Shown: positions 2,366-35,808 of the stretch, piece by piece | Layout of the letters: every line of letters begins with the position of its first letter | Numbering within the stretch: position 1 is the first letter of the stretch | NCBI GenBank assembly: GCA_040754625.1 | Contig: JBFMCF010000083.1 | Coordinates: 5,604 to 69,603, forward strand | Length of the DNA: 64,000 nucleotides | Origin: a bacterium | GTDB lineage: Bacteria; JACRDZ01; JAQUKH01 | Direction: 5' to 3' | Notes under the pieces: model-generated | The model's database searches: none | Seen by the model: only the letters and a program-made list of their open reading frames with translations | What the model was told of the DNA's origin: nothing | Made by a program: the position numbers and the translations under genes

Positions 2366-5300
2366 TCATTTAATCGGAACTATATTGTATTCTTTTATTT
2401 CTTCAAACTGCTGTTTTAGTTTTTCCCCGTGTTTTTCGGCGTCTTTCTTGTCATTAAAAAGCCCTGAACGTATAGTATACCATATCATTCCATTAATAAT
2501 GACTTTTTTAACATAGGCATAATTGCGTGAATCTGTCTTGTTGATTTTATCTGAAAAATTAGAAGCCCAGTCTTTGTTTTTGTCAGATGCCACTTCAATA
2601 GTCCATATCTGTTTAATTTTTTTAGGGGGGACATATACCAATTTGGTAATTTCTTCCTTTTTGGTTTCAGCGGATACCGGTTCCTTGTATACTCCGGTGT
2701 CAGTCATTTTCAAAGTTTCCGCTTTGGCTGTGGTGGTTTCCACTGGCTTTTCTTGTAAAAGACCCGCGGTTTTTTCTGTTAGAGGCAAAACCGGTTCTTT
2801 ACTGGTTTTAGATTCTTTTGCAGGGACTGTTTTAGCTGTCCCTGTTATTTCCATTGGTTCTATATTTACGGCGGCAGTTTCAGCAGGTTTTTGTTTTGAT
2901 GTTTCCGGTAGTTTAGGAACAACAGGCGCATATAACGGCTCTCCGGCCGTATCCTGTTTTTTATCCGGAACTGCAGTTGGTCCAGACGCAGTAGTATCTG
3001 TTTTTAAAGGAATAAGGGCCTGGGTAACCTTTTTGACAGCTTCAATGGGCAGGTTTATGACCTTCTGGGTGATATCAATGGTTTTTTCAGGTAAAGCAGC
3101 GGCCATTTCCAGACCCTTCGCAGGAAGCGAAGCCTCTGGAGGCGGTGTTTTAGTAGTATCGGGTGTTTTTTGAATAACAGTGGTGTCCGTTTTAGATGGA
3201 ATAATAGCCTGTGTAACTTTCTTGACAGCCTCAATGGGCAGGTTTATGACCTTCTGGGTGATATCAATGGTTTTTTCGGGCAGGCTGCTGACCGCCTCTT
3301 TTGTGGTTGTTATTCCCTCAGATACTTTTTGTAAAATAGAGGCCTTGGAGGGTGTGGGGACATTGAGAAAAATTTTCTTGCTGAATATATCGGAATAGTT
3401 TCCTACTTCATCCCGCAGCCAGAAATAAATTATTTTTTCGCCGTATCCTGGTGAGAGCGTATATTGAAATTCTGATTTTTTAGCCTCCCACCTGGCATTT
3501 TCAAAAAATGGGTTTTCGCTGACTTTTTGATAGTTATAATTTTCAAATTTGGTTTTAATAGTTATCTCCCGTGCTGTAGTTGTGTCCTGCGGCACTATTT
3601 CTATTTTTTCTGAATTTTGGATAAAATCTTTTGGCGGGGCAATATTTTCAATTTTAATATTGCTGACATATGAAATATTCCCGTTATCATCTTTAAATTT
3701 AAAATATATTGTTTTTTCTCCCAGGGGTTCCGAAAGATTAAAAGAAAATCTTTCGGAAAAAGGGACCCATGGACTATTTGAAAAATCAGGATCTTCTGAG
3801 GCCGTTAAATATTTTGCATTATAAGCGTAGATATATAAATTGACCCATGGAGTAAATGTAAAAATTTCTTCCATGGGTATTGTGGCTGTTATAATTGGAA
3901 AAATCGGGCTGTAAAAAAAGGAAGCCTTTGCCGTGGTTGATATATTATTGCCAGCCATGTCATATGCCTCGTTTATAACAATAATAATTTCTCCTGTCAT
4001 GTTTTCCTTCAGGATAACGGGAGGGGTAGTGTATGTGTCGTTTTGTATTATACTTGTGGAAAAAGTCCCTCCCGCGGGAATTTTTGGAGTATTTTCCCCC
4101 AATCCTATGAACGTAATTTGAGGATTACGGCTTATATCCATTGATTCGTTAAAAACACAGGAAAGTGTAAGAGAAGAGTTTTCAGGATTATACTGGAATT
4201 TGTAAAAGAGATTTTGAGGGCTGGTTTTGTCAACTATTACCTCGACCTTAAACGGCTCGGATATATTGCCGAACTGGTCTTGCAGCCTCAGATATATTTT
4301 TTTTCTTCCCTGTTCTTCAGAAAGAGGGAAAGGAGCAAAGTCGATATAACTTCTCCATAGATCTTCGGCAGTAGTATCAAGAATTTCATTCGTGCTTAGC
4401 ATAATAAACTCTGCGTCATCCGAGCTTATGATTAAATTGACCGTATTTTCCTTGGTATATTCTCTTTCCGCGGAAAAATTATTCAGGATCGGCGGGAACG
4501 TGTCTAACTGAAATGTTTCTTCTGAAATAATATCCATGATATTCCCCGCGAGGTCAGAAGCGTTTTTCACTACAATAGTTATTGCCCCGCCCATACCGGG
4601 TGATAAGCTGACAGGAGGAGTAGTATAAGTATCATTTTCCAGAGAGGTTGGTGTATTGCTTCTTGAAAAAGAACCTCCCTTGGAGACAAGGGGATTTTCT
4701 GTGCCGGTGCTGATTAGGATGACCTCGGGGATTATTGTTGTGTCGAGACTTTCATCAAAAATAACTGAGATTACTAAATCGCTGTTTAAAGTTACAGGAT
4801 TAGGATAGTTATACGAAATAACCGAGGGTTTTGTTAAATCCAGGTTGGTATTCAGTGTAACCGTTTTTGATATATTTCCTTCTTCATCGCGGACCCTGAT
4901 ATAGATTTGTTTTTGGCCGGACGCGGAAGATAAAACAAAAGGAGTATTGTTGGAATATTTAATCCATTTACTTTCCAGGAAAGAAGGATTTTCACTGATT
5001 TGCATTGAACTTGCTTTAATGGCACTCATTAAAATATGGATTTCTTTTTTATTGGTGTATACGCCTTCTTTTATAAGGGCGCTTTTTATTTCCGTGGGCA
5101 ATATATCGTAAATAAAACCTGTTAATGAAGCAGTTTGCATTTTATTTCCGGCTAAATCCGATACATTTTCTATCTCAAAATCAATATTTCCGGCGAGAGA
5201 ATCCTTTAAAGGTATGCTTGAACTGAAGTAAATGTTGTTAAATCCGTTTTCACTTGCGAAATAACCGCCTTGTTCAAGCACGGGTATTTTATCTTTATTA

Positions 5301-8300
5301 TTTATTACAAGGATTATTTTAGGTATTGTATTAATGTCCAGTGTTTCGGAAAAAATCAGTTTGATGCGGAATGACCGTAATGTTTTTATGTCTTCGGGAA
5401 GTATTGAATTAGTTATTTCGGGGGCGATGTTATCATAATTAATCATAAGTTTTTCCGGGTCTGAAATATTTCCCTCGCCGTCTTTAAAACGGACATAAAT
5501 TTGTTTATTGCCCGCGGGCCCGGATAAAGTAAAGGGAAGCAGTTCAGTGTATCTTATCCATTCAATATTCTCGAAGGAAGCATTTTCACTTATTTGAATT
5601 TCTGAGGCTTGAGGGTTATTTAAAATAATATTTATTTCTTTTTCCTTGGTAATTTCTCCATTTTCTATTCCAACGTTTGTTTTTAATTCGAAAGAGCCTA
5701 TTTTTGTCAACCCGATGGTATTTCCGGATAAATCCTGGATATTTTCTATAAATACCTCGTTTTCACCTGACATGGTTGTATCAAGGATTATGTCAGGAGT
5801 TGTGAGTATGTTATTTGAAAACTTGTTGTCTGAAAACGCCCAGTTATTATTTGATGTAACGGGATTTTTCCCGCCGCTTAAGTTTTTGATATAAAGTTTT
5901 GGCTCAATATACGGGTTTATCGGCTCATTTAATTCAAATTTTATGTGAAATTTAGGATTTATTCTTGCTGTCTTCGGGATAGAGACGCTTTCTATTTTTG
6001 GTTTTTGAGTATCTGTCAGTGCCAGCGCGGCTTCTGATTCGGACAAAATTGGAGCAGGGAGTATGGGTTTATATATTAATTGGCCCAGTGTCTCATCTGT
6101 ATTTTTATCGTAGAAATACAGTTCAATAAAGTTTGGTTTATCAGTACCCCACCAGTTATTCATTACATCTAAATCGTTATTAAAATTTTTTAAATAAAAG
6201 TTAAATTCTTTATTGTTAAAAATACTGTTATTTTGAATTAAAAATTTCCGGCTGAATTTCTCGCATAAAATACCGGTCTTATTGTCCCTGATTAGATTTT
6301 TAAAAATCAACGGAGAAGATTCTACCAGATAAATACCCTCATTTTTGTTTTTGGCTATTAGATTATTGACTAAGGCAGGAGAAGATAAAAAAGCTATTTT
6401 AAGACCAATATTCGTGTTTTCCATGATAGTATTATTGGCTATTTGGGGGGATGACCCTCTCTGGCAATTGATCCCGATTTCATTATTCATAATATAGTTA
6501 TTCATAATTGATGGAGAGGAGACATCATCGCAGAAAATCCCGGTTTTATTTTCAAATATTTCATTCTTAATGATGCTCCCGCTGGAGTTCAGCAATATGA
6601 TACCCTCATTTTTGTTATTTTCAATTTTTGATGATTCGATTTTCAACAATGAGTTATTAGCGGCGGAAACAGCAGTATTATTTTTAGAAAAAATAGAATT
6701 TGTTAAAACAGCCTTGGATTTATCCAGTGTTACAGCGATGTCTGCGAAATTGATTTTACAGAATTCAAAAATATTTTCCTGTACCCCTTTGATAATTATT
6801 CCTTTCCAGTCCCCTGTCTGGGGAGATGCCGATTGAATATCGAATTCTATTTCTTTATCTTTTTCTCCCCTGGCGATTAATTTGCCTTCAACAATTAACG
6901 CCGGTTTTTCCGTGACAGATATTTCTTTTTCATCAGCAACCTGCCGTTTTTTTAATTCAGAAAAAAGTAATTGGACGCCGGGTTGTATGGTTAACGTAAC
7001 ATCGCGCCCCACCGTAATTTCACCCCGCAGGTAATACGGGCTGTTTTCCCGGGTCAAAACCAGGTTGGTATCAATTATTTGAGGTAAATTTTGTTTCCCC
7101 TGGGGCAAAATAAAAGTACATATTTTGGTTACAGGAGCGGAAATGTTGCCGGCTGAATCTTTAAACTTAAAATATATAATTTTTTCTCCCTCGCTGCTGC
7201 TGAGGGGGAAGGTTTTTACAGGTTTAAAGGCCTGCCATTGAGAAGCCTTGAAAGTAACATCTTCTGTAATCATCATTTCTTCCGCTTCTGTTATATTGAA
7301 TTTAATATTTATCTGCGGGGAAAATGTAAAATTGCCTTCTTCGATAATTATACTGTCCGGTTTATCCAGGTTAAACCCTCTTTCGGGTTTCAGGATAAAA
7401 TTTTCTTCAGCCACTTTTTTTATTATGTTCCCTGCGGGATCGCGGGCGTCACTCACGACAATAGTGATTTCACCGGCCATGTTTTCGTCCAGTAAAATAT
7501 CAGGGGTTATATAAGTGTCGTTAGTTTGTGAAGTGCTTTTTATTTCACCGCCTTTTCCCACCAAAGGCGATACACGGCCATTGCCGATCAGGGTTATGAC
7601 AGGCGGGAAGTTAGTATCGATGGTTTTATTGAAAACCACTTTTATTTTAAATTCATTGCTTAATTTTACGGGTCTGGGATAAACATAAGAAATGATGTTT
7701 AACGGGGTGCTGTCTAAAGTTATATTCAAAAGCTGAGATGACGCAATCCTGCTCTTTTTGTCGGTTATGGTCATTTTTAAATTATTCTTGCCTTCTTTTA
7801 ATTTTATTATGCTTGAGAAACTTCCTTCTTTTACTTCTACCGGGAGAGAATCTTCGTTTAAAATTAATGTTGCTACCGTTAATGAAGTGTCGGAAATTGT
7901 GCCTTGAATGGTTTGTTCAGGATTATTTATTATCTGGTTATTGGCCAAAGATGTAATTTCAACAGTCAGGGGAATTTCTTCTTCATACCACTCAGACACA
8001 TATTCTGGTATTAAGGCCTGTGCTGATTCAAACGCAAGCAAAGTCATGATTTTTTTTACAGGAGATGTATGACATTCATTACAGATTTGATTGGCAGGGT
8101 TTTTTACTCTTAAAAAACTATTTTGGCCGTCCCCTTCTTCCTGGCTTATTATTTCGGCATTTGACGAGTCCCATTGATGGACATTATGGCATGTCGCGCA
8201 ACTCACTATGCCCAGGTCGAAATTAACAGCCGTCCCGGTATCAAAAAACGGTAATGGGAATACGGGCTTTTTTAATTGCGGCTTATTTTCCAATTGAAAA

Positions 8301-10882: not shown

Positions 10883-11025
10883 ACTAACTGATTTTACCCA
10901 ATCCTTCCTTTTTATTCATTCAGGAAGGGCTGGGTTCATTTGTTATATATTATACCATAAAGTAATTTAAAGATTATCCTTCAAGCAGGGACATAAAAAA
11001 ATAATAAAAAAGTAATGTAAAATAT

Positions 11026-11060
11026 ATTCTTGACCGATTATAATAATCATTGATATAATA
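11026..11060 (+). promoter_or_regulatory. Candidate sigma70-type promoter (TTGACC ... TATAAT-like) in the 239-bp AT-rich divergent region between the minus-strand giant cytochrome and the plus-strand NHL/cytochrome operon.
   Basis: ttgaccgattataataatcattgatataat lies upstream of the AGAGG Shine-Dalgarno sequence and ATG at 11122. Confidence 0.3.
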
Positions 11061-11121
11061 AAACATTCCATTCTTATAAATTTCGGAGAAACCAATTAAT
11101 ATATTTAGAGGTATAATAATC

Positions 11122-25100: not shown

Positions 25101-28100
25101 TATAGGTTCTTCGAGTGCTGCCGCAGGCGCGATAAATACCGCCCTTGATGAATTCCAGATTTCAAATAACACAAAACCCGGTGCTGAAATTTTAGCTGAT
25201 TACAATGGGGAAAATGAAATGAATTTCAGCGCAAGAAGAGGGACCCTGGCGTTCTGGGTAAAACCGTATTGGAATGGAAATGATAGTGAAGATCATACCT
25301 TTTTTGAAAGCAATTATGATACCAATAACTATTTCAGGCTCCAGAAAACAAGCGCCAATAATTTAACGTTTACAATAAGAGGCAGGGCCGCGTCACCGGT
25401 TGCTGTCTCTTACTCAGTTAATGATACCGCCACCCTGCCGGCAGGCATCTGGTCGCATATCGCGGCTTCATGGGAAGATTTTGATTCAAGCCGCTCGAAA
25501 ATGAAGCTGTATTTAAATGGCATACAGGTGAATAGCATAGATACCGCCACAATGATGGTATATACAGATACCGCTTTTTATATCGGGTCTCTCGAGAACG
25601 GCACGCAGTCGGTAAAAGCGGCCATGGATGAGGTTTGGATAACAGATATTATGCAGGATACTTCTATTATTTCATCCATATATGCTACTTTAAGCAATAC
25701 AGGCACAGGTTCAACCACAAGCCCGACAGAAAGTTACCTGCCGAACCCTACAAGTTTAACTTTGTTATTGTCTTATGATACTACATACAATGGGGCGAGT
25801 GGGGAACAGGCTTTGAATACGAGTAATATTTCGCGTGTAAGCGGAAAATTTGACAGCGGCTTGTCAATCAGCGGGAACGGCACCATAAGTTATTTGTCAG
25901 GAAATGGTTATTCGTCATTGGCCCTGGCCAATGGTTTTAATAACAGCCTTGGGATAGGTGTCCTTGATTCAACCGGGCCTATTACATGGACACAGGGATT
26001 CTTAGGCGGCACGGCCGGCGGCGTTTTAATTGATTCATCAGATGTATTAAGCTACAACAATAATACATTTTTAATTTATTATTATTATAATGACGGGACC
26101 GGTATTATGAAATTGGCCTGCAAGGAAACGATTAATTCCACCCCGCCGGATTCAACTAATCTTGGTTCTCAATTCTTATTGGGAATCGGTTCCGGCAGTT
26201 CGGACCAGGCCCAGGCCCCTGATATAATAAAACTTAGTGACGAGAGATACAGGATTTACTATGGATATTCTTTTAGTTATTACCAATTAGCATATAAGGA
26301 GACTATTAATACAAACCTGCCTGATTCAACCAGCCTTGGGTCGCGCCAGTTGTTAGGGATAGGGTCGTCTTTATCAGACCGGGCGAACGGCCCTAATATT
26401 ATAAAGCTTGATAACGGGAAATACAGGATTTATTATTTTTACAATGATGGGACATATACGCAGTTAGCTTACAAGGAAACCAGTGATACAAACCCGCCGG
26501 TAATAACTAATATTGGTTACCGACAGTTATTAGGTGTCGGTGATTCTATTACAAATCAGGCACAGAGTCCGAGTATTATAAGACTCCCCGATAATAAATA
26601 TAGAATATATTACGCTTATAACAACAATACCTTTGCACAACTGGCTTATAGGGAAACGAATGATACAAATGCGCCGGATTCCACTAACATTGGTTCCCAG
26701 CAGTTATTAGGTACAGGAACGTCTGCCAATGACCGTGCGAATGCCCCATATATAATACAACTTTCAAATGGATACTACAGGATTTATTACCAATATTATA
26801 ATGGGAGTTATTGGCAGTTGGCTTATAAACAAACAAGTAATGCCAATGCACCGGATTCATCAAATACTTATAGCCAGCCGCGGATTACGATAGCGACAGG
26901 GGGTTATAGCACTGCCCAGGCATACGAACCAAGTGTTGTCCCGAAGAATAAAATAAATGCGAAAAACGGGACTATCCAGGTCTGGGTCAATATTAATTCA
27001 GGTATTAAAGATACGGGGAGCAGAAGATATATTGTCCGGTCAACGTTTGATACATCTGCCGCTGACCCAAATAATAGTCTGGCGCTCTTTCACGATACTG
27101 ATGCAGCATGGAAATTTACTTCAAGAAATTCAACAACGACAAGCACTGTTTCTATAGCGGATAATCTTTCTTATGGCTGGCACAATTTTGCGGCAACATG
27201 GGACACCTCCGCCCTGAAATTATATATTGACGGTGAACTGCAGAATTCAGTATCAAGTCCAAACCTGCCGGACAGCACGGCAAGCCGTTATTATGTCGGG
27301 TGCGGCGGGGGAAGCGGCCAGATTAATACCGCGCTTGATGAATTGCTGATCGATGGAGCGGCAAAAACCCAGAGCGAGATTCGGACAAACATTCAGGCTT
27401 CAAGCTATAATTTCAACCCTGTTTCCGGGACCGTTGAGATGTGGATGAAGCCGATAAACTGGACAGGGACAGATACGACAAAACAACACTATTTATTTGA
27501 CGCCCATAATAACAGCCTCACAAAGGACCGTGTTTCATTATATTATGACACAACGAAAGAGATTAAGTTCGATGTTTACTCGTCAACAGGGGTTTTAAGA
27601 AGCGCTAAAATAGATGTAAGCACATTTTTGGATTCAACGACATTCCGTCATTACGCGGGCACGTGGGACCAGTATAGTGTGAATTTATATATAAACGGTA
27701 TACTGGCGGGCGATACCGCTTACACGGCAGTGTCCGACCAGAGGGCGGTCAATTTATCAATCGGAAGCAGCGCAAGAATAACAGGCCAGGCAGACGCCAT
27801 AATCGATGAGGTCAGGATATTTGATGTCCTGCGCGACGATGCCGCGATTAAGGCGGACGCGGGCGGAGTATATGATTATAAAATGTATTTCGCGAATAGT
27901 TTTGATCCTTATGACGGCGGGAGCCGCCACCCGATAAATATGGAGAGCGATGCCTTTGATTCGAGTTTTGGGACGGATGTATCAAAAATGGAATGTTTGA
28001 AATGCCATCTCCAGCTTGAAAATGACACAACTTTATATCACAGGAGAACAGGCGGGCTTATAAAATTTGTTAACGTGGACAGCAGTATGGTCTGGAACCA

Positions 28101-31100
28101 GCGAACGTGGAAGTATGATAACAGCACAAAAGCAAATGTTACTAAATTCTGTTTGTCCTGTCATATGAGGCCGGACATCAATTTTGACACAATTACAAAT
28201 TTAGGGGCCTCCGGATACACCTTCAGCGGTTCTTCTCCTGCTTATGGAGGGAAACCAGTCCAGCTAAGACCGTTAGACAGTACCGATACACCGGTATCAA
28301 AACCGGGTGGTGGAGTTTATTATCCGATAGATACTGCATCAGCCCATTTTGACTCAAGCTTCGGGTCAACCGCTGTCGGCGGGTTAAGCTGTACAGATTG
28401 TCATGACCCGCACGGGTCGATCAATAAGTCGATGCTGCAGGACTTCGAGGAGGCCAAGGAACAGAAAGATTATAACCGTGACGGGATAATGGCCCGCGAG
28501 ATACAATATCTGGATAAGGAAAATGTCCGGCTGTATCAATTAAATGAAGAGAAATTCTGTTACTTCTGCCATAACGGGAGATTCAATACCACAGGCGTGA
28601 ACCCGCCGGGAAGCATTCCGGGCGACCCGCTTTACTGGAAGATGAAGGACATTGAAAGTAAATTCGCATACCAGGGTGCCCATCATATGGTAGATGACGT
28701 GGAACAGGACGCGAATGATGTCAGGATAGAATGCACAAATTGCCATAACCCGCATACCGCGAAGAGAGATGCGGTTGTTCTTAACCCGCTGACAGGACAA
28801 AGGGCTTATGTAACTGCCACGGTCCTTATGAATACTTTTTGCGTAGGATGCCATGGTGACAGCACAATCAGTAATGTGATCCCGACCACGTGGGATGAGG
28901 GTATAAAATTCCCCGGGTCCATGATAAACAGGCCTGTCCCGGAATGGACCGGCAATTTATGGAATAAGTTCAATAAACAGTCAATGACTTCAGGAAATAA
29001 GCATTTCCAGAATGTTGAATGTGCGGCATGTCATGACCCGCATGGAACAAGCAACTACCGGCTGTTAAGTGAAACTGTTTTAAATAGATATACGGCCCTT
29101 GGCGGCAGCCCGTCAAGCCCGTCAACTACAAATGTCTACGGCCTGCAGTTAATGCTTCAACCCAAGCCCGACGGCAGGAAACGTTATGAGGTATACAGCA
29201 CAACCTATGGCACGGTTGTCACAAATTACAGCATTAACAGATTCTGTTTTGGGTGTCATAATAAACCGTATGGATACGACCCTGATTACGCGAGCAGTTA
29301 TATTTACCCCGGAGAAACCTGCTACAGCCAGTGGGATTTCGGGGTTGTAGACAGTTCATCGCAATGGACAAATTTTACAAAATACGATTCTATAATGACT
29401 GTGGGCGGCGCTTATAAATATATAGCGCCCGATGTTTATGGAAAAGATAAAGATTGTGATTACTGTCATAATCCTCATGGTTCAGATTCCACCCGTATAC
29501 GCATGGTGCGGGACAATGTTCCGCAGGATCTGGACAGGAACTCGCAGACCTTCGGGGACCGTGTTGACAGCGCAATGTGGTTCCAGGACGGTTATCCTGC
29601 TACTGGAGTGGATTTCTGCCTCAGCAGGGGATGCCATGTTACGAATCGTTTTGCCAAATTGGGGCCAAGAGATCCAAATTATGTTCCTGGCGGGATGTCA
29701 ACATGGTGGACTAAACCCTATGACCAGTTCAATTTGCTTACATATGGCACGTATGGCGCGTTGCCATTTTCCAGTATAAGACCGGGAAGCTTTAAACCGG
29801 ATGGTATAGCATATACTACCGCGCGGGCGTCAAAACACCCGATAATGCCTTACGATGATTTTATAAACCAGGGAAATACGTTGATTTGTTTATCATGCCA
29901 TACACCGCACGGTTCGCCCGGGAATACCGGATTGGCCGCGAGTTACGGCAGTAATTATGAGTCCACTTATCCCCAGGACGCCGCCGGGCTTCGCCGCGCG
30001 TATTATAGAAGAATATATTGGTGGCCTGTAACCTTCTGGAAACGAAGCAGTCCGGCCGACATTGCAATCGGGCATGCCTATGGCGGCACTCCTTCTAATA
30101 ATCAGTTTGCAAATTTCGCAAATTTTAATTATGATTATGATGTCAACACCCTCCTGCAAAACGACGCATATTACTCACTTTTTGTCACCCGCAGAATAAC
30201 AACATATTATAATCTTTATGGGACCCAGGAGATGCATCCTGATGGTGCAGTAGGCACAGAAAATCCTATGCGATACGGTGAAAAAGTTTTTAATCAGAAT
30301 ATTCCCTCGGCCGGAAATGATCTTTGCTATATGTGCCATCCTATGCCGGAAATTGCAGGAGCTACCGGCTGGCCTGAGACTACTTACATAGGAATTGATA
30401 CCACAAAAACCCGTTTTGTAGGCCATGAGGCGGTAATAGGCGGTTCAAAAATAGGAGAGACTAAATTCGGGACAGGGAGCTCGGTAGGGAATATGGGCCT
30501 TAATCTTAGAACGTTCATCGTCCGGAGTGATTTTCATAAATTTACATGTTCAATGTGCCATGGCCCGCACGCCGCTACAAATGAAAAATTATTGACCAAC
30601 AAATGTTATGCTTATAATTTCCGGAAACCGCCGACACTTGACACTCACGGTAATGATGTAGATAACAGGGGCCGTCCTTCCGTATATTGCCATCCTTATG
30701 ACAATACAGGCCCGACAAACTGGAATTACAAAGTTAACTGGAAGGACACCGAGCCTGGAACAACATTCGTCGGGTGGAGAAATATGGTTGACACCACGAA
30801 GATGGATTTTGACAGGCCGCCGAACAGCATAGATACATTGTTTGTATATTTTAATACAACCGGTGTTTACGATACGAATACGGTAATTCCCGGGCTGAGT
30901 AATCTTTATGTAACATCCAGTGATTTTGATGTTGTCCTCGCATGGAGGTCCGTCTATGACAGTACAAGATGGATTGACCATTATAACGTATATCGCGGAG
31001 AGACTACACTTACCCAGGCAAATAAGGCCTATAAGACCAACCCGCCGGGTGTTACCATTAAAACATGGCCGGGATGGAATTACAGCTTTGTAAGCCGCAT

Positions 31101-34100
31101 TTATGACAGCAATCTTACACGGCCGACCGGGGAATTTAATACATTATATACCATTGACCCGTCTTTTGCCCATACCCTTGGAAAAAAATATTATTATATT
31201 GTGGCCCCCGCGGATTCTTTTAATAATGAGGCGCTGACACCAAACTGCCAGGATACAGCAGGGTCTTATTACACAAGCACCAATACCGTTGCTCCAAGGC
31301 CGGTTACCGCCTTGAGCCTGACCCAGGAGACATACGACAGCGGAGGTTTTAATTTCAAGATGCGTTTTATCTGGCAGGACCCGGGGGATAATATAGCTAC
31401 TAAAAATTATTCTTTATACTATAAAATAATAGATACTGCCCAGTTTAATCCAAGTTATTCTTCGCTTAGCGCTTATTTGACTGATTATATTGTAACTGTA
31501 ACTGATACAAGCTTCAATACGGATATAATTTCTGCAATAAATTTCGGAGATTATTATGTTACTACTCATGCAAATGAAAGTACAATGGATTCAGACGCGG
31601 TAGTTCAAAGGAAAGTATATGTTTTAGGCATAAAGCCGGCCGATAATCAAAATAACACCGCGTCTCTTTACAGCATAAAATATATAAGAATAGCAGATCC
31701 TGTTCCATCCATGATAACTGATTTGAAAGCAAGGCCGGATATAACGGCTAATCTGACTGATACTACAAATAATAGATATAATGTCAGATTAGAATGGTCG
31801 GTCCCATGGGATAATGCTCAAAGCATAGAGTCTGCTTCTATCCCGATATACAAGATTTACCGTAAACTTAACGATCCTATTAACCAGATTGAGCTGAATA
31901 CCTATAATTTGATAGACACTGCATTGACAACTATTGAAAATATAGCGGTTTTAACCGCCTATAATTCCGTGGCCCTTTCTCAATATAATTTTGGAAACGT
32001 TATTACGTATACGGATAATGTTGAGCCGAATAAGGTATATTATTATGCTGTAACCTCAATAGATAAATACGCGACTGCCGCGGCAAATCTCGCAGACACT
32101 GTTTATGGTTATACCACCGACCGCGCGGGCAGGTTATACCGTGAACAAATATTGCCGGGTTATAATACTAAACTACTTAGCCCTTTAAGCAGTAAATTTA
32201 AAACGGTAAAGTCAAATACTTCTTTCAGGTTCTCATTTAATGAAGCCACCTATGAAACAGCCTATTTTAAAGAATACAGGTTCTATGAACGTTTTGAAAC
32301 GGACAGGGCCTGGAGGTTTAATTCCACTTATTTTGAAACTGCAATGATTCACGCGACCACTTCTGTCTGCTGGACGCCGGGTTCGGGCTGTCATGATGAC
32401 AGGCTGAGTCACGGAGATACCTCAGAGTGCAGGGTTTGCCACCAGGGTAACGCGCGGGGCAGGCTTGATATAGATACCACTTATCCTGTAGGGACTTATT
32501 ATTTTGCAGGTTCAATTGTTTATAATAGCGTCCGGATCATTATTGATGGAAGGCCGGCAACGGTCAATAACCTGGAATCACCTTTGAATGAAATAGCATC
32601 ATTGACCGTTTACGATTTGATTCCTCCATCTCCGTTTAATTATTTAAATTACACACTTGTGCCGGAAAGGGAAAACGGTTACGATAGTGTCAGGCTCTCG
32701 TGGTCCGGAGGACGGGATACGACTAATTTCCAGAATTATATAATCAAGTACCGTCCCGAAATGGCACCCTACAACCAGTGGTTAAGCAGTTCATGGGTAA
32801 CGCAGGACACCACAGTAATTAATACCTATCAAACCACCTGGACGGCACTGTATCCTACGCCGGACAGCCGATGGCAGTCTAGTCTGGCCCAGCCTAAATA
32901 CGGCGATTTTATTTATAGATATGAAATACAGGCCTGGGATTCAGATTATAATTATTCGTCAATAAGTACTCAGATATCGACACGTCCGCCGTCCGGTGTT
33001 GTAGGCCCTGGTTTTAATTTGCAGGGACTGGCAGGACCTGAAATCAGGTTAAGCTGGACAAATATGTATAACCTCTCGTATGGAACAGATTATTCAGCGA
33101 CAATAGGAGGATATAAACTTTATGCAAAAGAAACGGCCGGCACAATAGACCACATTTTTTACGGGACAACACTTAACATTGATACCGCTTATGGTATTAA
33201 TTTGATAAAGACCATGACTCCGATACTTGATACTACAGCGTGGCCGCAGGGTAACCAGGCACTTAATTGTTATGTTACTGCAAGCAGCAACCAGCCTTAC
33301 GCGTCGAACGCAAACGATGGAAGCTTAGCGTCACTGTGGCTTGCTGATGCTTATGATACGTTCTCGACAACATATATTATGTTTGATTTAGGTGCAAGAA
33401 AAGAAATAGCCACCATAACATATAATAATTCTATTGAAGGAATTAGTTTTGCGGTGGATAGTACCGATAGTTCCCAGGGTTATACTATATTGGTCGCTGA
33501 TACAAACATGGTTTGGGAAACAGTTGTTTCTAAACCTGTAAATACCCCGAGGGGCGAAGTTGCATGGCCGAGAACAGGAGCTCTAACACCGATTCAATAC
33601 ATAATGGTAACCAATTTCAGCAGTTACGCCACTGATAATATTTCGGGAGCTGTAACTGAATTAAAGGCAAACTATCCGTCAGATACAACTACGACCGTGT
33701 TTAACCATGCAAATAATAATCCCTTGTTCAAGGCCCTTATCGGCCGCAGGTATGCCTATGGTATATATTTAGAAGATACAACAAGCGCCAAGAGCCGGTC
33801 GGCGTTTACAGGATCATCCTATTTAGTGCAGGATATTAACAGGCCGTATTCGGTTATTGACCTGGCGGCATACGGCTCAGGCAAGGACAATTACATACGT
33901 CTGAAATGGTCAAAACCGTACGATGATTCCGGAGGTATCGCACGTTATGAAGTATGGCGCAGGGAAGATAACCCGGACATTGTAGATAATAACGGATATG
34001 ATTTCAATAAAAATGTGCGTCTCAGTTCAACATACACGACTGAATTTTATACGGACACAAGTACTCTTTCATCAAGCCCGTACTGGTATGCAATTTGTGC

Positions 34101-35808
34101 GGTAGATTCTACCGGGAACAGGTCTCTTTTTGCGGGTAAAAACTATTCAGTTTCTGCTACAAAAGGAAAAAATAAGGACACAACGCCGCCCGAACCGACA
34201 GTTTTGCAAAAACTTGATTACAGGAAAGTCAGGGACGGCGGCCCGGATGTTACTCTTGGCTGGAAGAGCACAAAAGATAAAAAAGATTACGACACGCTTG
34301 GCCAGGAGGACACTACTTTATATCCGATACCTTCAGATTCAACAATAGGGATCTCTATATATTCGATTTATAAGGTGGATTACGCACTGGATTCCACTCC
34401 TTTTGCCAATGAACTTGAATTGCTTGGCAGAAACACTTTTAACAGCGGCTATTCAACCACCCTGGGAGTTGTAGCTGATGGATGGAAGGCCGGGACATGG
34501 GGGTCGACTAATGTATTGGCAAGTATTGACAGCACGTTGTCAAGCCCTGCCCAGAAACTGAATATTTATAATTATAACGGTGATCCAAATGAACAAATAA
34601 CAGCTAATCCAAAGTATGTCAGGAGCGCGGCATACCTTAAAACAACAGGCTACACATTTGAGACCTCAAGATACATTATCAGCGGCATGGAAACAGCAAC
34701 TACGCATTATATATTTGGTTTATGGTTAAAAGCGGAAGGCCAGTTTGTGGCCCAGTACCCGGGTAATGTTTATGTTGATATAGCAACTAAATTAAATTCC
34801 GGAAATGAGTCAACTTATACCTTAATAGCGAGGAGGACAATTAAAAAACCCGGCTACAACTGGAAGTATTATATACTCAATTTTGTGACTCCGACAAGCG
34901 GCCTGGATTCTACAAATGAAAATGGTATTATGATTTGGGGAAATAATGACGGGAACATATGGATGGACAGCGCCAGACTGACATATCTGGGAAGACCGAC
35001 AATAAGAAAACCTGAAACTACAACAGTTGACATGGATGTCTCGGCAAACCAGAATTATGTTTATGCCGTGACTGCCGTGGATTACCTTGCGGATAATAAC
35101 CCGGATGACGGTTTTATCTATGACGGAAATGAGGGTGATTTTGAGAGCAGTATGATGATTGGTACTGATGAAAGAGAACCGTATTTTGATTCCGCGTATG
35201 AATCAATATGGGACAGTACGCCGTGGCTTATGCTTACTAATCCCGCCCGTGTATTTAAAACCGGCACCACTCCTACTATATCTTTTATGGAAGGTGCGAC
35301 CCCGACTGATTATGTAACGGTTCAGTATGGAGGTAACGGGCTTATTTTTGATTCTGATAATATATTTAAAAACGGTGATTTTGTGAGTTTTAAAATGAAA
35401 ATTATGGACCCGGTTACGAACCTGCCTGATACGACTATTTTGCAGGGAATAGGTTTTCTATATGTTGATTACAGCAGGCTGGATGTTACACGGTGGGGTG
35501 TTTATTCACCTGTCCCGCTTGGCGACGGGGAATACAAATACTATTTTAGAATCAGCACGGATGATTATCTATATTACACGGCGGGAATACCACAACTGCC
35601 GGACACACCCTATAATACTGCCACAGGCATGTATGAAAGCTTATCCAAGATTGTCATTTACGCTGTAGATAAAATGGGGAATGGGCCGTATTTTGACGAT
35701 ACTACCGGACTTGATACAACAGATAATAATCCGGACACTACTTATCGGTGTATACTTGATAATGAAGTCACGGATGCGCCCGGCAGCCCCGGAGGAGAGG
35801 AACCATAA
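19141..35808 (+). CDS. Giant secreted multiheme c-type cytochrome (5555 aa, about 45 heme-binding motifs) with four LamG-like lectin domains, five tandem 59-aa repeats, multiple FN3-like modules and a discoidin (F5/8 type C)-like domain.
   Basis: ATG at 19141 with a GGGGG Shine-Dalgarno sequence. Signal/TM LISLIFLLILSLIPFIFI. About 30 CxxCH in residues 57-1690 and about 13 more in residues ~2950-3810, plus CRVCH near residue 4430. LamG-like blocks end in NTALDEFQISNN and NTALDELLIDG. FN3-like Y/W-rich beta-sandwich modules in the C-terminal third. Confidence 0.85.
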   Translation: MRPKILNDKTDLISLIFLLILSLIPFIFIKAIETTDYRRTMLGSAHDLNNPDSTASCLNCHWMHQRGERVEGYSHSLISQYTRDVCFVCHSGLNPNLETAALKDFGYIKQDFLDYKPKQFQGVDTVHFSGQIGKNPYDIKAEYGVATASAAGSFHMFYSTTGEFSGIDINTFSCFDCHNHGIYESTLDTMGGRLPRLIWSKGSYANFGTTITKADRKDINKFYATEYYCLSCHSKYGYPDKWKTLTWDSARRQLNDTFFLETRHSLLERYGIRSDLPAGSVPEPRNPYGFGNDISCFVCHSRHASAYPSLMRGDFSEVDMCMNCHYGAARDSTYAFTYIHETSLAINYITAGHYADKGYSSIGHVKDIALGGPGVVCTDCHNPHGTGHYKMVKGVVKDPRFKRGDTTYDSSYNLETTYSYIYDLDSLKAVSGFCGGACHNKNSPANYERWYALGMASYTDSATMPSYYRGLPLYDSSKHKGVYNSVQTAPFILSNCSACHDAHGTVNKALLWQSEEELCFQCHFESTIGGAPDIKKYFDTAVSGNHARSHHPIFDTGKVNADQSSVRAVECINCHNPHLATKQYPTIYPYNWSLISDYSSVLNTNNSTDHENRAKFCSACHSETFPKLDPRIYPYGTTYSTTIAYPPGVRINAKQIGNEWFGVQGSAIPATLTYVTNGHFKFPGLIDCINCHSPHGSSNPSNIRDEAYLDPIDSAVDNFISSVYVNFGNYQAFYNENTKISRKFCYTADTAVTYGCHTPQYLTTQVTFPDNLQQDSTRHRTRRVPFGPIDSSYYIDEHDPYWDTNTISAVPPSGILGCSVCHYLAHNPTPDYWYVNSAKGVAQNCLDCHHPAENTYSSTTAKFYGGAPTQYESPYVEFVTSGVYPVSTTYVSKHLASAGINDTTSNYCKQCHGEHVRPTRTNPPVRTDEYHDVPGGGFIASPDTSFGYATTYLDGQTFCLACHRGASRFGGKIAPNVNVTYESAGHGRLGRGDTSSSDTTYGIKVYCFDCHTKHSSQNPKLLRTKIRDLITYSTSDIWTTIVSNRQIRAEDLDTGFNYVSVRTVGYQAVCFACHSLPGSVYDSSIYYQNNAWNSNPGTKLWLGKTVYESAGHGNTFITPYAYVDTAEYGTTKPVNGGMKCSWCHEPHGRGTDSTGAFNSTFNDDMLEIGSTTETGGNITLCYKCHNKVLTAPDSSYSIANIKALFDSSYSMHDIYSTATDTKVTCLNCHNPHTGNKAYPVVVANYRTDVNAGDDAFCISCHLAEGLVPKFSRGNPPPDVEFPKKDAQGEALTGFDKSGYTASAHGLGGAWCRTCHKPHGTMKLKLLREVYDFNQDGLLGGHSYDTIYTTTRYGTTDYREEDVCFGCHRNHDNDGGDWNTAWAGIPDVLQFYQIFDTVTKTYGERTRSHHNVYLDEQRGLDSTWGTTNGVIDDTRVECESCHNQHKATKSQPLTDPDSPDIIMSAWGDSGISFCLRCHDNEPPPGITGLTDEKYKNILKEYGKPDINGIYPNFTGHYRQIDGKPLECRLCHSMHGSNYSKQIQDAMGSELDTFKMMRNMRSVALTDTSLGGNDTLALSTVTEICLSCHSGKSQFYDRNMLVWRDIPIAPPPQRVDLYVNTAVYHPRLLDTSLDSAIYIAYADTGLVRKKVKSVYSTVFNIDDTTVDAAGCNCHGAHNPYKAASNEFSNCFNCHNGYAGIPDQQTPFDTGKFRDGPAPLIKDDNTLLLLHLNGSYDGESKEGSIENTGLAYVAGKYDLGLSFQTTYSTTKLAYPLWTTKSTGAPGQIGRVQHVQSNDLTLRFNNTCNDEDAGGQRYINSLSTATGVSYVEGYIPGITGAVYLGTGNNLTCSTTAAGVTPLSSKKNIDISDSTNNGSVQAWVRIDDPGTGIQDTTTDRYIFIHATTSAEPFKNAIFLRHSNFNTWDIGVSDETGVQYNIVSAKDELTAGWHHIAGTWSKADKQLKIYIDGVLVASEGALFFPKYTSTTFRIGSSSAAAGAINTALDEFQISNNTKPGAEILADYNGENEMNFSARRGTLAFWVKPYWNGNDSEDHTFFESNYDTNNYFRLQKTSANNLTFTIRGRAASPVAVSYSVNDTATLPAGIWSHIAASWEDFDSSRSKMKLYLNGIQVNSIDTATMMVYTDTAFYIGSLENGTQSVKAAMDEVWITDIMQDTSIISSIYATLSNTGTGSTTSPTESYLPNPTSLTLLLSYDTTYNGASGEQALNTSNISRVSGKFDSGLSISGNGTISYLSGNGYSSLALANGFNNSLGIGVLDSTGPITWTQGFLGGTAGGVLIDSSDVLSYNNNTFLIYYYYNDGTGIMKLACKETINSTPPDSTNLGSQFLLGIGSGSSDQAQAPDIIKLSDERYRIYYGYSFSYYQLAYKETINTNLPDSTSLGSRQLLGIGSSLSDRANGPNIIKLDNGKYRIYYFYNDGTYTQLAYKETSDTNPPVITNIGYRQLLGVGDSITNQAQSPSIIRLPDNKYRIYYAYNNNTFAQLAYRETNDTNAPDSTNIGSQQLLGTGTSANDRANAPYIIQLSNGYYRIYYQYYNGSYWQLAYKQTSNANAPDSSNTYSQPRITIATGGYSTAQAYEPSVVPKNKINAKNGTIQVWVNINSGIKDTGSRRYIVRSTFDTSAADPNNSLALFHDTDAAWKFTSRNSTTTSTVSIADNLSYGWHNFAATWDTSALKLYIDGELQNSVSSPNLPDSTASRYYVGCGGGSGQINTALDELLIDGAAKTQSEIRTNIQASSYNFNPVSGTVEMWMKPINWTGTDTTKQHYLFDAHNNSLTKDRVSLYYDTTKEIKFDVYSSTGVLRSAKIDVSTFLDSTTFRHYAGTWDQYSVNLYINGILAGDTAYTAVSDQRAVNLSIGSSARITGQADAIIDEVRIFDVLRDDAAIKADAGGVYDYKMYFANSFDPYDGGSRHPINMESDAFDSSFGTDVSKMECLKCHLQLENDTTLYHRRTGGLIKFVNVDSSMVWNQRTWKYDNSTKANVTKFCLSCHMRPDINFDTITNLGASGYTFSGSSPAYGGKPVQLRPLDSTDTPVSKPGGGVYYPIDTASAHFDSSFGSTAVGGLSCTDCHDPHGSINKSMLQDFEEAKEQKDYNRDGIMAREIQYLDKENVRLYQLNEEKFCYFCHNGRFNTTGVNPPGSIPGDPLYWKMKDIESKFAYQGAHHMVDDVEQDANDVRIECTNCHNPHTAKRDAVVLNPLTGQRAYVTATVLMNTFCVGCHGDSTISNVIPTTWDEGIKFPGSMINRPVPEWTGNLWNKFNKQSMTSGNKHFQNVECAACHDPHGTSNYRLLSETVLNRYTALGGSPSSPSTTNVYGLQLMLQPKPDGRKRYEVYSTTYGTVVTNYSINRFCFGCHNKPYGYDPDYASSYIYPGETCYSQWDFGVVDSSSQWTNFTKYDSIMTVGGAYKYIAPDVYGKDKDCDYCHNPHGSDSTRIRMVRDNVPQDLDRNSQTFGDRVDSAMWFQDGYPATGVDFCLSRGCHVTNRFAKLGPRDPNYVPGGMSTWWTKPYDQFNLLTYGTYGALPFSSIRPGSFKPDGIAYTTARASKHPIMPYDDFINQGNTLICLSCHTPHGSPGNTGLAASYGSNYESTYPQDAAGLRRAYYRRIYWWPVTFWKRSSPADIAIGHAYGGTPSNNQFANFANFNYDYDVNTLLQNDAYYSLFVTRRITTYYNLYGTQEMHPDGAVGTENPMRYGEKVFNQNIPSAGNDLCYMCHPMPEIAGATGWPETTYIGIDTTKTRFVGHEAVIGGSKIGETKFGTGSSVGNMGLNLRTFIVRSDFHKFTCSMCHGPHAATNEKLLTNKCYAYNFRKPPTLDTHGNDVDNRGRPSVYCHPYDNTGPTNWNYKVNWKDTEPGTTFVGWRNMVDTTKMDFDRPPNSIDTLFVYFNTTGVYDTNTVIPGLSNLYVTSSDFDVVLAWRSVYDSTRWIDHYNVYRGETTLTQANKAYKTNPPGVTIKTWPGWNYSFVSRIYDSNLTRPTGEFNTLYTIDPSFAHTLGKKYYYIVAPADSFNNEALTPNCQDTAGSYYTSTNTVAPRPVTALSLTQETYDSGGFNFKMRFIWQDPGDNIATKNYSLYYKIIDTAQFNPSYSSLSAYLTDYIVTVTDTSFNTDIISAINFGDYYVTTHANESTMDSDAVVQRKVYVLGIKPADNQNNTASLYSIKYIRIADPVPSMITDLKARPDITANLTDTTNNRYNVRLEWSVPWDNAQSIESASIPIYKIYRKLNDPINQIELNTYNLIDTALTTIENIAVLTAYNSVALSQYNFGNVITYTDNVEPNKVYYYAVTSIDKYATAAANLADTVYGYTTDRAGRLYREQILPGYNTKLLSPLSSKFKTVKSNTSFRFSFNEATYETAYFKEYRFYERFETDRAWRFNSTYFETAMIHATTSVCWTPGSGCHDDRLSHGDTSECRVCHQGNARGRLDIDTTYPVGTYYFAGSIVYNSVRIIIDGRPATVNNLESPLNEIASLTVYDLIPPSPFNYLNYTLVPERENGYDSVRLSWSGGRDTTNFQNYIIKYRPEMAPYNQWLSSSWVTQDTTVINTYQTTWTALYPTPDSRWQSSLAQPKYGDFIYRYEIQAWDSDYNYSSISTQISTRPPSGVVGPGFNLQGLAGPEIRLSWTNMYNLSYGTDYSATIGGYKLYAKETAGTIDHIFYGTTLNIDTAYGINLIKTMTPILDTTAWPQGNQALNCYVTASSNQPYASNANDGSLASLWLADAYDTFSTTYIMFDLGARKEIATITYNNSIEGISFAVDSTDSSQGYTILVADTNMVWETVVSKPVNTPRGEVAWPRTGALTPIQYIMVTNFSSYATDNISGAVTELKANYPSDTTTTVFNHANNNPLFKALIGRRYAYGIYLEDTTSAKSRSAFTGSSYLVQDINRPYSVIDLAAYGSGKDNYIRLKWSKPYDDSGGIARYEVWRREDNPDIVDNNGYDFNKNVRLSSTYTTEFYTDTSTLSSSPYWYAICAVDSTGNRSLFAGKNYSVSATKGKNKDTTPPEPTVLQKLDYRKVRDGGPDVTLGWKSTKDKKDYDTLGQEDTTLYPIPSDSTIGISIYSIYKVDYALDSTPFANELELLGRNTFNSGYSTTLGVVADGWKAGTWGSTNVLASIDSTLSSPAQKLNIYNYNGDPNEQITANPKYVRSAAYLKTTGYTFETSRYIISGMETATTHYIFGLWLKAEGQFVAQYPGNVYVDIATKLNSGNESTYTLIARRTIKKPGYNWKYYILNFVTPTSGLDSTNENGIMIWGNNDGNIWMDSARLTYLGRPTIRKPETTTVDMDVSANQNYVYAVTAVDYLADNNPDDGFIYDGNEGDFESSMMIGTDEREPYFDSAYESIWDSTPWLMLTNPARVFKTGTTPTISFMEGATPTDYVTVQYGGNGLIFDSDNIFKNGDFVSFKMKIMDPVTNLPDTTILQGIGFLYVDYSRLDVTRWGVYSPVPLGDGEYKYYFRISTDDYLYYTAGIPQLPDTPYNTATGMYESLSKIVIYAVDKMGNGPYFDDTTGLDTTDNNPDTTYRCILDNEVTDAPGSPGGEEP
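19309..24216 (+). other. Heme-rich region 1 of the 5555-aa protein (about 30 CxxCH/CxxxCH motifs from CLNCH to CFNCH).
   Basis: Motif positions read directly from the translation and DNA: tgtcttaattgtcac at 19309 and tgttttaactgccac at about 24201. Confidence 0.8.
24755..25650 (+). other. Two consecutive LamG/concanavalin-A-like lectin domains (Laminin_G_3-like) in the 5555-aa protein.
   Basis: SVQAWVRIDD...WHHIAGTWSKADKQLKIYIDGVLVA...INTALDEFQISNN, then LAFWVKPYW...WSHIAASWED...MKLYLNGIQV...MDEVWITD. Confidence 0.6.
26020..26990 (+). repeat. Five tandem, diverged 177-bp (59-aa) repeats, consensus LAYKET-x-x-TN-x-PDSTNLGS-x-QLLGIGSS-x-SDRA-x-AP-x-IIKL-x-x-x-x-YRIYY-x-YN, inside the 5555-aa ORF.
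   Basis: Repeat units start at about 26115, 26284, 26461, 26641 and 26818. Protein-level identity between units is roughly 50-60%. Confidence 0.8.
26965..27825 (+). other. Third and fourth LamG/concanavalin-like domains of the 5555-aa protein.
   Basis: GTIQVWVNINSG...WHNFAATWDTSALKLYIDGEL...INTALDELLIDG and GTVEMWMKPINW...YAGTWDQYSVNLYINGIL...IDEVRIFD. Confidence 0.6.
27990..30565 (+). other. Heme-rich region 2 of the 5555-aa protein (about 13 motifs from CLKCH to CSMCH, including the CX4CH variant CLSRGCH).
   Basis: CLKCH, CLSCH x2, CTDCH, CYFCH, CTNCH, CVGCH, CAACH, CFGCH, CDYCH, CLSRGCH, CYMCH, CSMCH. Confidence 0.8.
33260..33520 (+). other. Discoidin (F5/8 type C)-like carbohydrate-binding domain within the FN3-rich C-terminal third of the 5555-aa protein.
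   Basis: LNCYVTASSNQPYASNANDGSLASLWLADAYDTFSTTYIMFDLGARKEIATITYNN matches the discoidin pattern (A-S-S..., DG...T-W, DLG...I). Confidence 0.45.

Follow-up and report, generated by a model that had tools for sequence, protein, structure and literature searches.

A divergent gene cluster for four giant multiheme cytochromes in an uncultured bacterium, a candidate envelope or extracellular electron conduit

What would a bacterium do with about one hundred hemes encoded in four neighboring genes? A 64,000-nucleotide stretch of contig JBFMCF010000083.1 (GCA_040754625.1), hereafter the window, contains a divergent gene cluster encoding four very large secreted proteins filled with heme-binding motifs. 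A preliminary description of this DNA proposed that they form an electron conduit across or outside the cell envelope. On the sequence, we find this the most reasonable function, and we hold it moderately probable that the cluster is an envelope or extracellular electron conduit, be it for electron export or for uptake. Of the 72,944-bp source contig, about 9 kb fall beyond the window. We refer to the four cytochrome open reading frames (ORFs) as A, B, C and D, and to the neighboring FN3/TPR protein as E.

Four giant cytochromes and their heme sites

The cluster is built around the following features, with lengths in amino acids (aa):

2366-10882, minus strand: cytochrome A, a 2838-aa ORF (2828 aa in the NCBI annotation)
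10883-11121, no strand: divergent spacer between A and the NHL gene, 239 bp, 24.7% G+C
12155-16099, plus strand: cytochrome B, 1314 aa, with a signal peptide, 18 CxxCH and 2 CxxxCH
16157-19117, plus strand: cytochrome C, 986 aa, with 14 CxxCH
19141-35808, plus strand: cytochrome D, 5555 aa, with 42 CxxCH, 1 CxxxCH and 1 CxxxxCH (44 sites)

The ORF listing reproduces the four lengths and positions first described, as well as the AT-rich region between the divergent genes. None of the four frames has an internal stop, and the 32 kb of coding sequence are free of stops and frameshifts, leaving no sign of the frameshifted pseudogenes that had been named as a possible objection. Counted by program, the proteins hold 22, 18, 14 and 42 CxxCH motifs, 96 canonical motifs in all, and the variant sites (two CxxxCH in B, one CxxxCH and one CxxxxCH in D) bring the total to 100. 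The preliminary counts of 22, 21, 15 and 45 were exact for A and slightly high for the other three, and so essentially right; the "more than 100" motifs then claimed (103) become 100 with the variants included. As had been anticipated, chance expectation is far below one motif per protein: given their own composition, 0.016-0.064 CxxCH are expected in each, and 2000 shuffles yielded 2 at most. The remaining 23 window ORFs (9515 aa) contain no CxxCH. In A-D, 80-85% of the cysteines belong to heme motifs.

Family assignment points the same way. Four Pfam cytochrome families, Paired_CXXCH_1, Cytochrome_C7, Cytochrom_c3_2 and Mtrc-MtrF_II-IV_dom, score above their gathering thresholds in A-D, with 64-170 bits for Paired_CXXCH_1 (cutoff 20.6) and 44-98 bits for Mtrc-MtrF_II-IV_dom in all four proteins, so the suggested Pfam check comes out in favor of cytochromes throughout. 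TIGR01905 was above cutoff in an NCBIfam scan that covered A, B and C. Hydropathy places a basic n-region followed by a hydrophobic segment at the start of each protein. We conclude from sequence that A-D are exported multiheme c-type cytochromes of the c3/c7/paired-CXXCH superfamily with predicted covalent heme. NCBI already annotates A and D (the identical entries P0001 and P0036) as "cytochrome c3 family protein"; B, the NHL protein, the ResB protein and others are MEW6088097-MEW6088121, with locus tags AB1498_. Heme density is one site per ~38 aa in the case of A and one per 52-76 aa in B, C and D. By analogy, the former is typical of compact wire-like cytochromes, and the latter resembles OmcS or MtrC with more non-heme scaffold.

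Could such an array be an artefact of assembly chimerism, decaying pseudogenes or chance accumulation of CxxCH? A short-read metagenome-assembled genome (MAG) is the source, D beyond aa ~2183 and the D/E junction are without a close homologue, and the G+C content of B-E (42-45%, with second codon positions up to 0.475) exceeds the 34-40% of A and the flanking genes. Against this stand the long uninterrupted coding sequence, a chance expectation below 0.07 motifs per protein, and a third-position G+C of B-E (GC3, 0.40-0.44) inside the range of the other window genes. Because GC3 overlaps the rest of the window, amino-acid composition accounts for much of the G+C rise; a foreign origin of B-E may nevertheless be considered.

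A further argument against an artefact is recurrence. A second NCBI MAG contains A, and the B/NHL/A, B-C-D and C-D junctions are repeated in two other SRA assemblies. In the order found here, one locus (L002) carries the start of B, the NHL gene, A, a family-2 glycosyltransferase (GT2) gene and a radical SAM/SPASM gene. A second (L006) runs from the end of B through C to aa 2183 of D, and a third (L007) has C and the first 1362 aa of D. D is in addition colinear, on both sides of an inserted LamG region, with single proteins from other phyla. The close relatives, only a handful, are 53-69% identical, come from independent assemblies, among them GCA_043809805.1, SRR22388020 and SRR22315506, and keep every alignment-covered motif bar one: 22/22 in A, 14/14 in C, 8/8 in B, and 28/29 and 23/23 in D. 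Since the A/NHL/B, B-C-D and A-GT2-radical SAM order and the motifs recur in independent assemblies, the chimera and pseudogene explanations fail, and we judge an artefact to be extremely improbable. By their pattern of conservation, the heme sites are under purifying selection.

Domain architecture and relatives of the four proteins

Cytochrome A joins a dense heme domain to a long, heme-free stalk. Its recognizable domains are:

8069-10768, minus strand: heme domain of A (aa 39-938), Paired_CXXCH_1 at 125 bits
6083-7015, minus strand: right-handed beta-helix of A, NosD/pectin-lyase-like (~aa 1290-1600), Pfam Beta_helix at 64-75 bits and NosD at 48-50 bits
2408-2608, minus strand: C-terminal, peptidoglycan-binding SPOR domain of A (aa 2759-2825), Pfam SPOR at 29-30 bits (cutoff 21)

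From the N-terminus, the protein consists of the signal peptide, the 22-heme domain, Ig-like modules and the NosD-like beta-helix; then come alternating Ig-like repeats, a Pro/Thr/Lys-rich linker of ~250 aa and the SPOR domain. Within the heme domain the 22 CxxCH have a median spacing of 38 aa and are interrupted by one heme-free insert of 149 aa. The longest ORF begins at a TTG; the NCBI protein and the homologues (MKK[IV]IF...) start 10 codons further downstream, and the true start is probably 10852. Within the linker before SPOR (2611-3350; A aa ~2510-2755), which is rich in Pro, Thr, Lys and Glu, a segment of ~70 aa (LPEKTIDITQKVINLPIEAVKKVTQA...KTDTT) is duplicated. No part of A is less conserved than this linker, at 44-45% identity vs ~70% elsewhere.

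Two close homologues of A were found, P0002 (GCA_043809805.1) at 68% and P0003 (SRA run SRR22388020) at 65% identity, within a range of 65-69%; all 22 motifs share alignment columns with both. The SPOR domain is also present in P0003 and has a weak PDB match to the SPOR domain of DamX (2LFV). A profile of the A family weakly matches NrfB, OcwA (6I5B, E 0.006) and chain A of 6R2Q, which, despite the depositor's label, we take to be MtrA of the MtrCAB complex. More distantly, P0005-P0012 form a wider family of cytochrome/beta-helix fusions with 15-38 hemes, vs 22 in A, that are 31-35% identical over 26-50% of A; the MAGs of the A family are labelled Candidatus Desantisbacteria, Candidatus Poribacteria or "bacterium". 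As in A, a multiheme domain at the N-terminus precedes a NosD/beta-helix region, but their precomputed Pfam lists contain no SPOR. The two whose contigs were inspected lack the cluster context of A: P0006 (L003) lies among housekeeping genes, and P0005 (L004) follows a 509-aa cytochrome. From these comparisons, the SPOR domain and the long repeat stalk of A appear specific to its close relatives. Scanning metagenome contigs with the A family retrieved only distant cytochromes of 22-27% identity (L008-L015).

B and C have few relatives. Partial homologues of B are its N-terminus in L002 and its C-terminal 649 aa in L006 (65% identity, all eight covered motifs kept), and no relative was seen in the word-indexed search, in the PDB or in the genome-contig scan. 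A candidate JGI copy of B, P0054, was rejected, its sequence being unrelated to B; it is a 43-aa JGI peptide that represents B's 90%-identity cluster, an apparent clustering artefact of the protein collection. Exact-sequence look-ups of B, the NifS protein of the window, P0001 and P0036 matched no contig on record. For C, only two full-length close homologues (56% and 53% identity, 14/14 motifs in both) exist among 1.84 billion representative proteins, and P0027 (1263 aa, 14 hemes) is a distant colinear relative. The genome-contig scan with the C-family alignment, for which a single poor pattern was used, gave no relatives, and neither C nor B found a relative of solved structure in single-sequence searches. 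A profile of the C family, by comparison, matches OmcS (6EF8) with E 3.2e-5 over ~120 residues, in the following part of the protein; a similarity among the N-terminal motifs was not significant.

18674-19081, plus strand: OmcS-like part of C (~aa 840-975, approximate), two CxxCH and an RHPxG aligned to OmcS 222-346

We therefore describe C as weakly and partially OmcS-like, in its C-terminal part.

Cytochrome D, the largest of the four, is divided by a lectin region into two heme blocks:

19309-24216, plus strand: heme block 1 of D (aa 57-1692), 30 sites
24259-27894, plus strand: LamG/concanavalin-A-like lectin cassette of D (aa ~1707-2918), Pfam Laminin_G_3 at 205 bits
27994-30561, plus strand: heme block 2 of D (aa 2952-3807), 13 sites
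30838-35808, plus strand: C-terminal tail of D (aa ~3900-5555), with FN3-like repeats, a discoidin/galactose-binding-like domain and an isolated CxxCH at aa 4430

Laminin_G_3 matches four stretches and one more in the second half, which makes at least four domains and probably five. The discoidin-like domain (~aa 4723-4797) is below the Pfam cutoff (F5_F8_type_C_2, 24 bits vs 27.8), and the FN3-like repeats of the tail were seen by inspection of the sequence; homologues carry PF00754 and PF00041. These homologues, P0037-P0044, are eight uncharacterized proteins of ~4000 aa from uncultured bacteria, one labelled Nitrospirae bacterium, in which 44-50 CxxCH (usually 44) are followed by FN3, discoidin and carbohydrate-binding module (CBM) domains. 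Identity to D is ~25%, and common to both are the 44 sites, the two heme blocks and the tail. Across D and all eight, at ~25-35% identity, 16 CxxCH columns are invariant. By BLAST, D 12-400 corresponds to P0038 6-307, D 466-1706 to 482-1510 (E 1e-76), D 2919-4391 to 1512-2537 (E 1e-77) and D 4593-5088 to 2994-3436. Because colinearity breaks exactly at the LamG cassette, the latter is a ~1200-aa insertion into a conserved 44-heme scaffold. The insertion, between hemes 30 and 31, sets D apart from these proteins, and the rest of the neighborhood differs as well. Closer to D are the N-terminal fragments in L006 and L007, at 57-63% identity. A D profile weakly matches 6R2Q chain A, as the A profile does, and the metagenome-contig scan with the D N-terminal alignment gave no match.

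In an unrelated metagenome (ERZ25039477 contig_23289; L005, 1-21877), a 1875-aa 42-heme cytochrome adjoins a 3958-aa 44-heme discoidin/FN3 cytochrome, 86 hemes together. The pair is preceded by a propeller protein of >1800 aa with RCC1 repeats. As the 42-heme gene precedes a D-like gene there, tandem giant cytochromes occur in another lineage.

The adhesin, lectin and peptidoglycan-binding modules noticed at the outset are thus present, as Ig-like, beta-helix, LamG, FN3, discoidin-like and SPOR domains, and they raise the possibility that the proteins are redox-active surface enzymes or adhesins. Here the non-heme domains would be the core, acting in polysaccharide binding or cleavage or in cell-cell adhesion, and the heme arrays would supply or withdraw electrons for extracellular catalysis, such as an oxidative attack on polymers or the reduction or oxidation of peroxide, humics, soluble metals or compounds of sulfur or nitrogen. 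The NosD/pectin-lyase-like beta-helix, a weak GH16-like match, the LamG and discoidin-like domains and the CBM of the homologues are compatible with such a role, as is the suggestion that the pectin-lyase-like domain of MHC-C, a giant cytochrome of anaerobic methanotrophic archaea (ANME), recognizes partner cell walls (PMC9012536). No catalytic family, however, passes its cutoff with a matched stretch of its own: NosD_copper_fam reaches 23 bits vs a cutoff of 300, and GH16 a bare 22.8 vs a Pfam cutoff of 22 with no stretch passing alone. No heme family of catalytic type was found, NrfA- and HAO-like families being unmatched, and the heme counts are far beyond catalytic need (an argument made in PMC11492766). 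We consider this explanation unlikely. The best reading of the carbohydrate-binding and peptidoglycan-anchoring modules is that they belong to the proposed conduit.

Accessory genes and the proposed function

All the neighbors named in the preliminary description, an NHL propeller, an FN3/TPR protein, ResB, GT2 and radical SAM, were recovered by family matches:

11122-12132, plus strand: secreted NHL-repeat six-bladed beta-propeller, 336 aa, Pfam DUF5128/SGL/NHL ("6-bladed beta-propeller" in NCBI)
35853-39881, plus strand: protein E, 1342 aa, without heme motifs; it closes the operon, 44 bp behind D
40250-41560, plus strand: ResB/CcsB-like System II cytochrome c biogenesis membrane protein, 436 aa, Pfam ResB PF05140 at 158 bits
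41557-42345, plus strand: secreted 262-aa protein with carboxypeptidase-regulatory-like beta-sandwich repeats, translationally coupled to ResB
1401-2303, minus strand: GT2 glycosyltransferase directly downstream of A, Pfam Glycos_transf_2 at 84 bits
310-1395, minus strand: radical SAM/SPASM enzyme downstream of A, Pfam Radical_SAM and SPASM, with only generic sub-cutoff NCBIfam matches

NHL-B-C-D-E form one tight plus-strand operon, with gaps of 22, 57, 23 and 44 bp, and A is transcribed divergently. A predicted sigma-70-type promoter (TTGACC-18-TATAAT, 11030-11059), a near-consensus match only, faces the operon. The NHL gene is the first of it and has the same place in L002. Protein E has a signal peptide, FN3-like repeats, Ig-like/Big_1 domains and a C-terminal YbgF/CpoB/BamD-like TPR. 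A second operon starts 368 bp after E with ResB (~4 hydrophobic segments, in agreement with its NCBI name) and continues with the 262-aa protein, MoaA, MoaC, a MOSC-domain gene and an AAA ATPase. The MoaA, MoaC and MOSC-domain genes (42352-44338) directly follow the ResB and 262-aa genes, which hints at a molybdoenzyme partner encoded elsewhere. On the other side, the GT2 and radical SAM/SPASM pair follows the A homologue in L002, and in L001 the two genes flank it. An assignment of the radical SAM/SPASM enzyme to the heme synthases AhbD or NirJ was rejected (60-71 bits vs cutoffs of 500).

From these parts, a mechanism for the conduit can be proposed. Four Sec-exported, heme-loaded cytochromes with ~100 hemes would link the cell to an insoluble or external partner such as a mineral, humic matter or another cell. 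Outside the membrane, heme would be attached by ResB together with an unseen CcsA. Chains of closely spaced hemes would be formed by the dense 22-heme part of A (MtrA/NrfB/OcwA-like) and by the lower-density OmcS/MtrC-like blocks of B, C and D. SPOR would tether A to peptidoglycan, and the beta-helix, LamG, discoidin-like, FN3 and Ig modules would keep the cytochromes embedded in polysaccharide matrix or in contact with a surface or partner. Candidates for assembly or stabilizing factors are the NHL propeller and E with its TPR, in line with proposals for NHL proteins beside OmcS and other extracellular cytochromes. If expressed, the cluster would endow an uncultured bacterium with extracellular redox capacity on a very large scale, 100 hemes encoded in co-transcribed or divergent genes.

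Several observations weigh against a conduit. Among the 27 window ORFs of at least 150 aa there was no match to porin, outer-membrane protein, CcsA (Cytochrom_C_asm) or membrane quinol-dehydrogenase families, which upholds the earlier remark that a porin partner is missing. With quinol dehydrogenase, periplasmic shuttle, porin and CcsA all missing from the window, the proposed path lacks an anchor at both ends. The porin, CcsA and quinol dehydrogenase may be encoded elsewhere in the genome. The only hint of an outer membrane is the YbgF/BamD-like TPR of E, which is below cutoff. As ~1500 heme-free aa separate SPOR from the heme domain, A alone could not conduct from the wall outward. The AlphaFold check that had been recommended for the heme segments gave unusable AlphaFold2 models, with a predicted local distance difference test (pLDDT) score of 29 for C (from a 5-sequence alignment) and 28 for D aa 466-1660 (from a 9-sequence alignment), and with such scores no model supports continuity of the heme chain. 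Lastly, the likeness to OmcS, MtrA and OcwA is weak and partial.

The missing porin also bears on a different function, electron storage or redox buffering, in which ~100 hemes would act as a periplasmic or wall-bound capacitor that bridges intermittent acceptors. The very high number of hemes per polypeptide would suit this role, long-tailed heme counts have been ascribed to electron storage or long-distance transfer (PMC11492766), and SPOR would retain A in the wall or periplasm. A capacitor would have no need, however, of the lectin, FN3, Ig and beta-helix modules, which are typical of surface-exposed ligand binders; C is OmcS-like; and NHL and TPR accessory genes go with extracellular cytochromes in the literature. 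Storage thus seems to us a minor candidate, with a low probability, and the electron conduit remains our preferred reading.

The neighborhood holds other features. Two ORFs were looked at as hidden porins and rejected: one of 374 aa resembles a cytoplasmic alpha/beta-hydrolase (GHSLGS motif), and one of 370 aa is a lipoprotein with carboxypeptidase-regulatory-like repeats. Three paralogous membrane glycosyltransferases of GT-C type (PMT_2/ArnT/Agl23-like) lie in tandem at 48444-53571 on the minus strand. Their series is broken by a lipoprotein gene (49864-50976) whose product has carboxypeptidase-regulatory-like repeats and is paralogous to the ResB-coupled 262-aa protein. Between E and ResB, a 276-nucleotide element (39935-40210) is bounded by perfect 33-nucleotide inverted repeats (TAGTGCTCTGGCAAGTTAATTTTTGATAGATAG). 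It folds far better than its shuffles (z -9.2), occurs once in the window and in none of the fetched loci, and gave no convincing match in Rfam. An insertion resembling a miniature inverted-repeat transposable element and a structured RNA are both candidates. Overlapping genes for an AbiEi-like antitoxin and an AbiEii nucleotidyltransferase toxin, a type IV toxin-antitoxin pair, are at 62260-63766 (with an unusually low G+C of 28% and 34%). No tRNA and no Rfam family were detected in the 64-kb window.

B, C and D share a further property. The tripeptide D-(S/T)-(A/I/L/V/M/T) is the sequon of general O-glycosylation in Bacteroidota (PMC8550257), described as the only known motif-directed system of bacterial O-glycosylation, with enrichment mainly in that phylum (PMC12871550). 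Its counts are as follows:

Cytochrome B: 24 observed, 5.9 expected, z 7.9
Cytochrome C: 19 observed, 4.1 expected, z 7.8
Cytochrome D: 79 observed, 24.8 expected, z 11.2

This amounts to a 3-4.6-fold enrichment (122 sites), and "DTT" alone occurs 24 times in D vs 3.8 expected. Close homologues of B, C and D (P0023, L006, L007) are likewise enriched. Enrichment was absent from E, the NHL protein, cytoplasmic proteins and distant giant cytochromes (including P0037-P0044), and the reversed motif was not enriched (z -0.1). Conserved flanks are lacking, the distribution of the sites along the proteins is even, and only about one third of them are conserved in position. Glycosyltransferases of the window comprise GT2, the three tandem GT-C/PMT_2 genes and a GT4. 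These data suggest that B, C and D are heavily O-glycosylated, a testable idea by which extracellular cytochromes would be glycoproteins in this lineage.

One could go further and join these elements into a porin-independent, SPOR-tethered and heavily O-glycosylated cytochrome fiber or matrix, made of A and the sequon-rich B, C and D and reaching tens of nanometers to minerals or partner cells, with C contributing OmcS-like modules and the NHL propeller serving as assembly factor. We offer this combination as speculative and, as a whole, doubtful. If true, D-S/T-x O-glycosylation, so far held unique to Bacteroidota, would be used in an unclassified lineage or by its cytochromes.

Comparison with known systems

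A close architectural parallel comes from archaea. The giant ANME cytochromes MHC-A/B/C have 20-86 CxxCH, the ERB4 protein of ANME-2c reaching 86 hemes; they are fused to S-layer or pectin-lyase-like domains, have a dedicated maturation gene adjacent, and are proposed to carry electrons through an envelope layer other than an outer membrane and to contact partners (PMC9012536). The present cluster is similar in its very large multiheme polypeptides, the beta-helix fusion in A and the maturation gene beside them, a likeness of architecture only. It differs in being bacterial, in the SPOR anchor of A, in using ResB for maturation where ANME have CcmF2, and in its LamG, FN3 and discoidin modules. 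Neither an S-layer (DUF1608) domain nor a C-terminal transmembrane helix as in ANME was detected in A-D by Pfam or hydropathy.

In Geobacter, the NHL protein GSU2505 adjoins omcS and is implicated in electrode reduction (PMC9070056), and in G. metallireducens and D. ferrophilus, too, outer cytochromes have been linked to NHL proteins. Here the NHL gene in the operon and the profile match of C to OmcS 222-346, including two heme motifs, recall this arrangement. OmcS, however, has 407 aa and 6 hemes, whereas C has 986 aa and 14 hemes and aligns significantly over only ~120 residues. The Uet cluster of Ca. Tenderia electrophaga combines multiheme cytochromes, NHL beta-propellers, CcsA/CcsB and a TPR protein (bioRxiv 10.1101/2022.05.06.490989). 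Compared by the paper's description, our locus likewise brings together multiheme cytochromes, NHL, CcsB and TPR, but Uet has an outer-membrane beta-barrel, CcsA, small tri-, tetra- and undecaheme cytochromes and a cupredoxin, while here the cytochromes are giant and fused and the window holds no barrel or CcsA.

With MtrCAB and Pcc of Shewanella and Geobacter, the cluster has in common predicted chains of bis-histidine-type hemes for trans-envelope transfer, the Mtrc-MtrF_II-IV_dom family in A-D and weak DmsE/MtrA-like matches. A decaheme of the MtrA/DmsE family proper was not found in A, B or C, in which TIGR03508 scores 69, 36 and 44 bits vs a cutoff of 192. Unlike in those systems, there is no porin in the window, and A-D are 3-17 times larger and carry non-heme modules. 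OcwA of Thermincola potens, with 9 hemes, offers the concept of a wall-bridging cytochrome without a porin (PDB 6I5B), with a marginal match to A (E 0.006). That protein has ~500 aa and belongs to a Gram-positive metal reducer.

In view of these precedents, the initial claim that the cluster is of a type not described as a unit does not stand as worded: the ANME fusions, metagenomic multiheme cytochromes with up to 116 motifs (bioRxiv 10.64898/2026.05.27.727921), the Tenderia cluster and the wider A and D families are known, and long "nanowire-like" cytochromes have been catalogued in Desulfuromonadia. A literature search for multiheme proteins combined with discoidin, LamG or beta-helix modules returned nothing relevant. 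No concept is overturned, as metagenomes have already yielded many reports of giant multiheme cytochromes and of clusters of them. What is new, as predicted here, is the combination of a SPOR-anchored cytochrome/beta-helix protein, a 44-heme scaffold with a LamG cassette and two lineage-restricted cytochromes, one of them partly OmcS-like, in an NHL-headed cluster; this combination appears restricted to a small uncultured clade. It illustrates two routes for the evolution of giant cytochromes, a lectin cassette entering a 44-heme scaffold and a peptidoglycan anchor added to a cytochrome/beta-helix fusion. The NHL propeller, TPR protein and dedicated System II gene are a further case of a recurring kit, and the ANME-like design of cytochrome, envelope anchor and carbohydrate-binding module now extends to bacteria.

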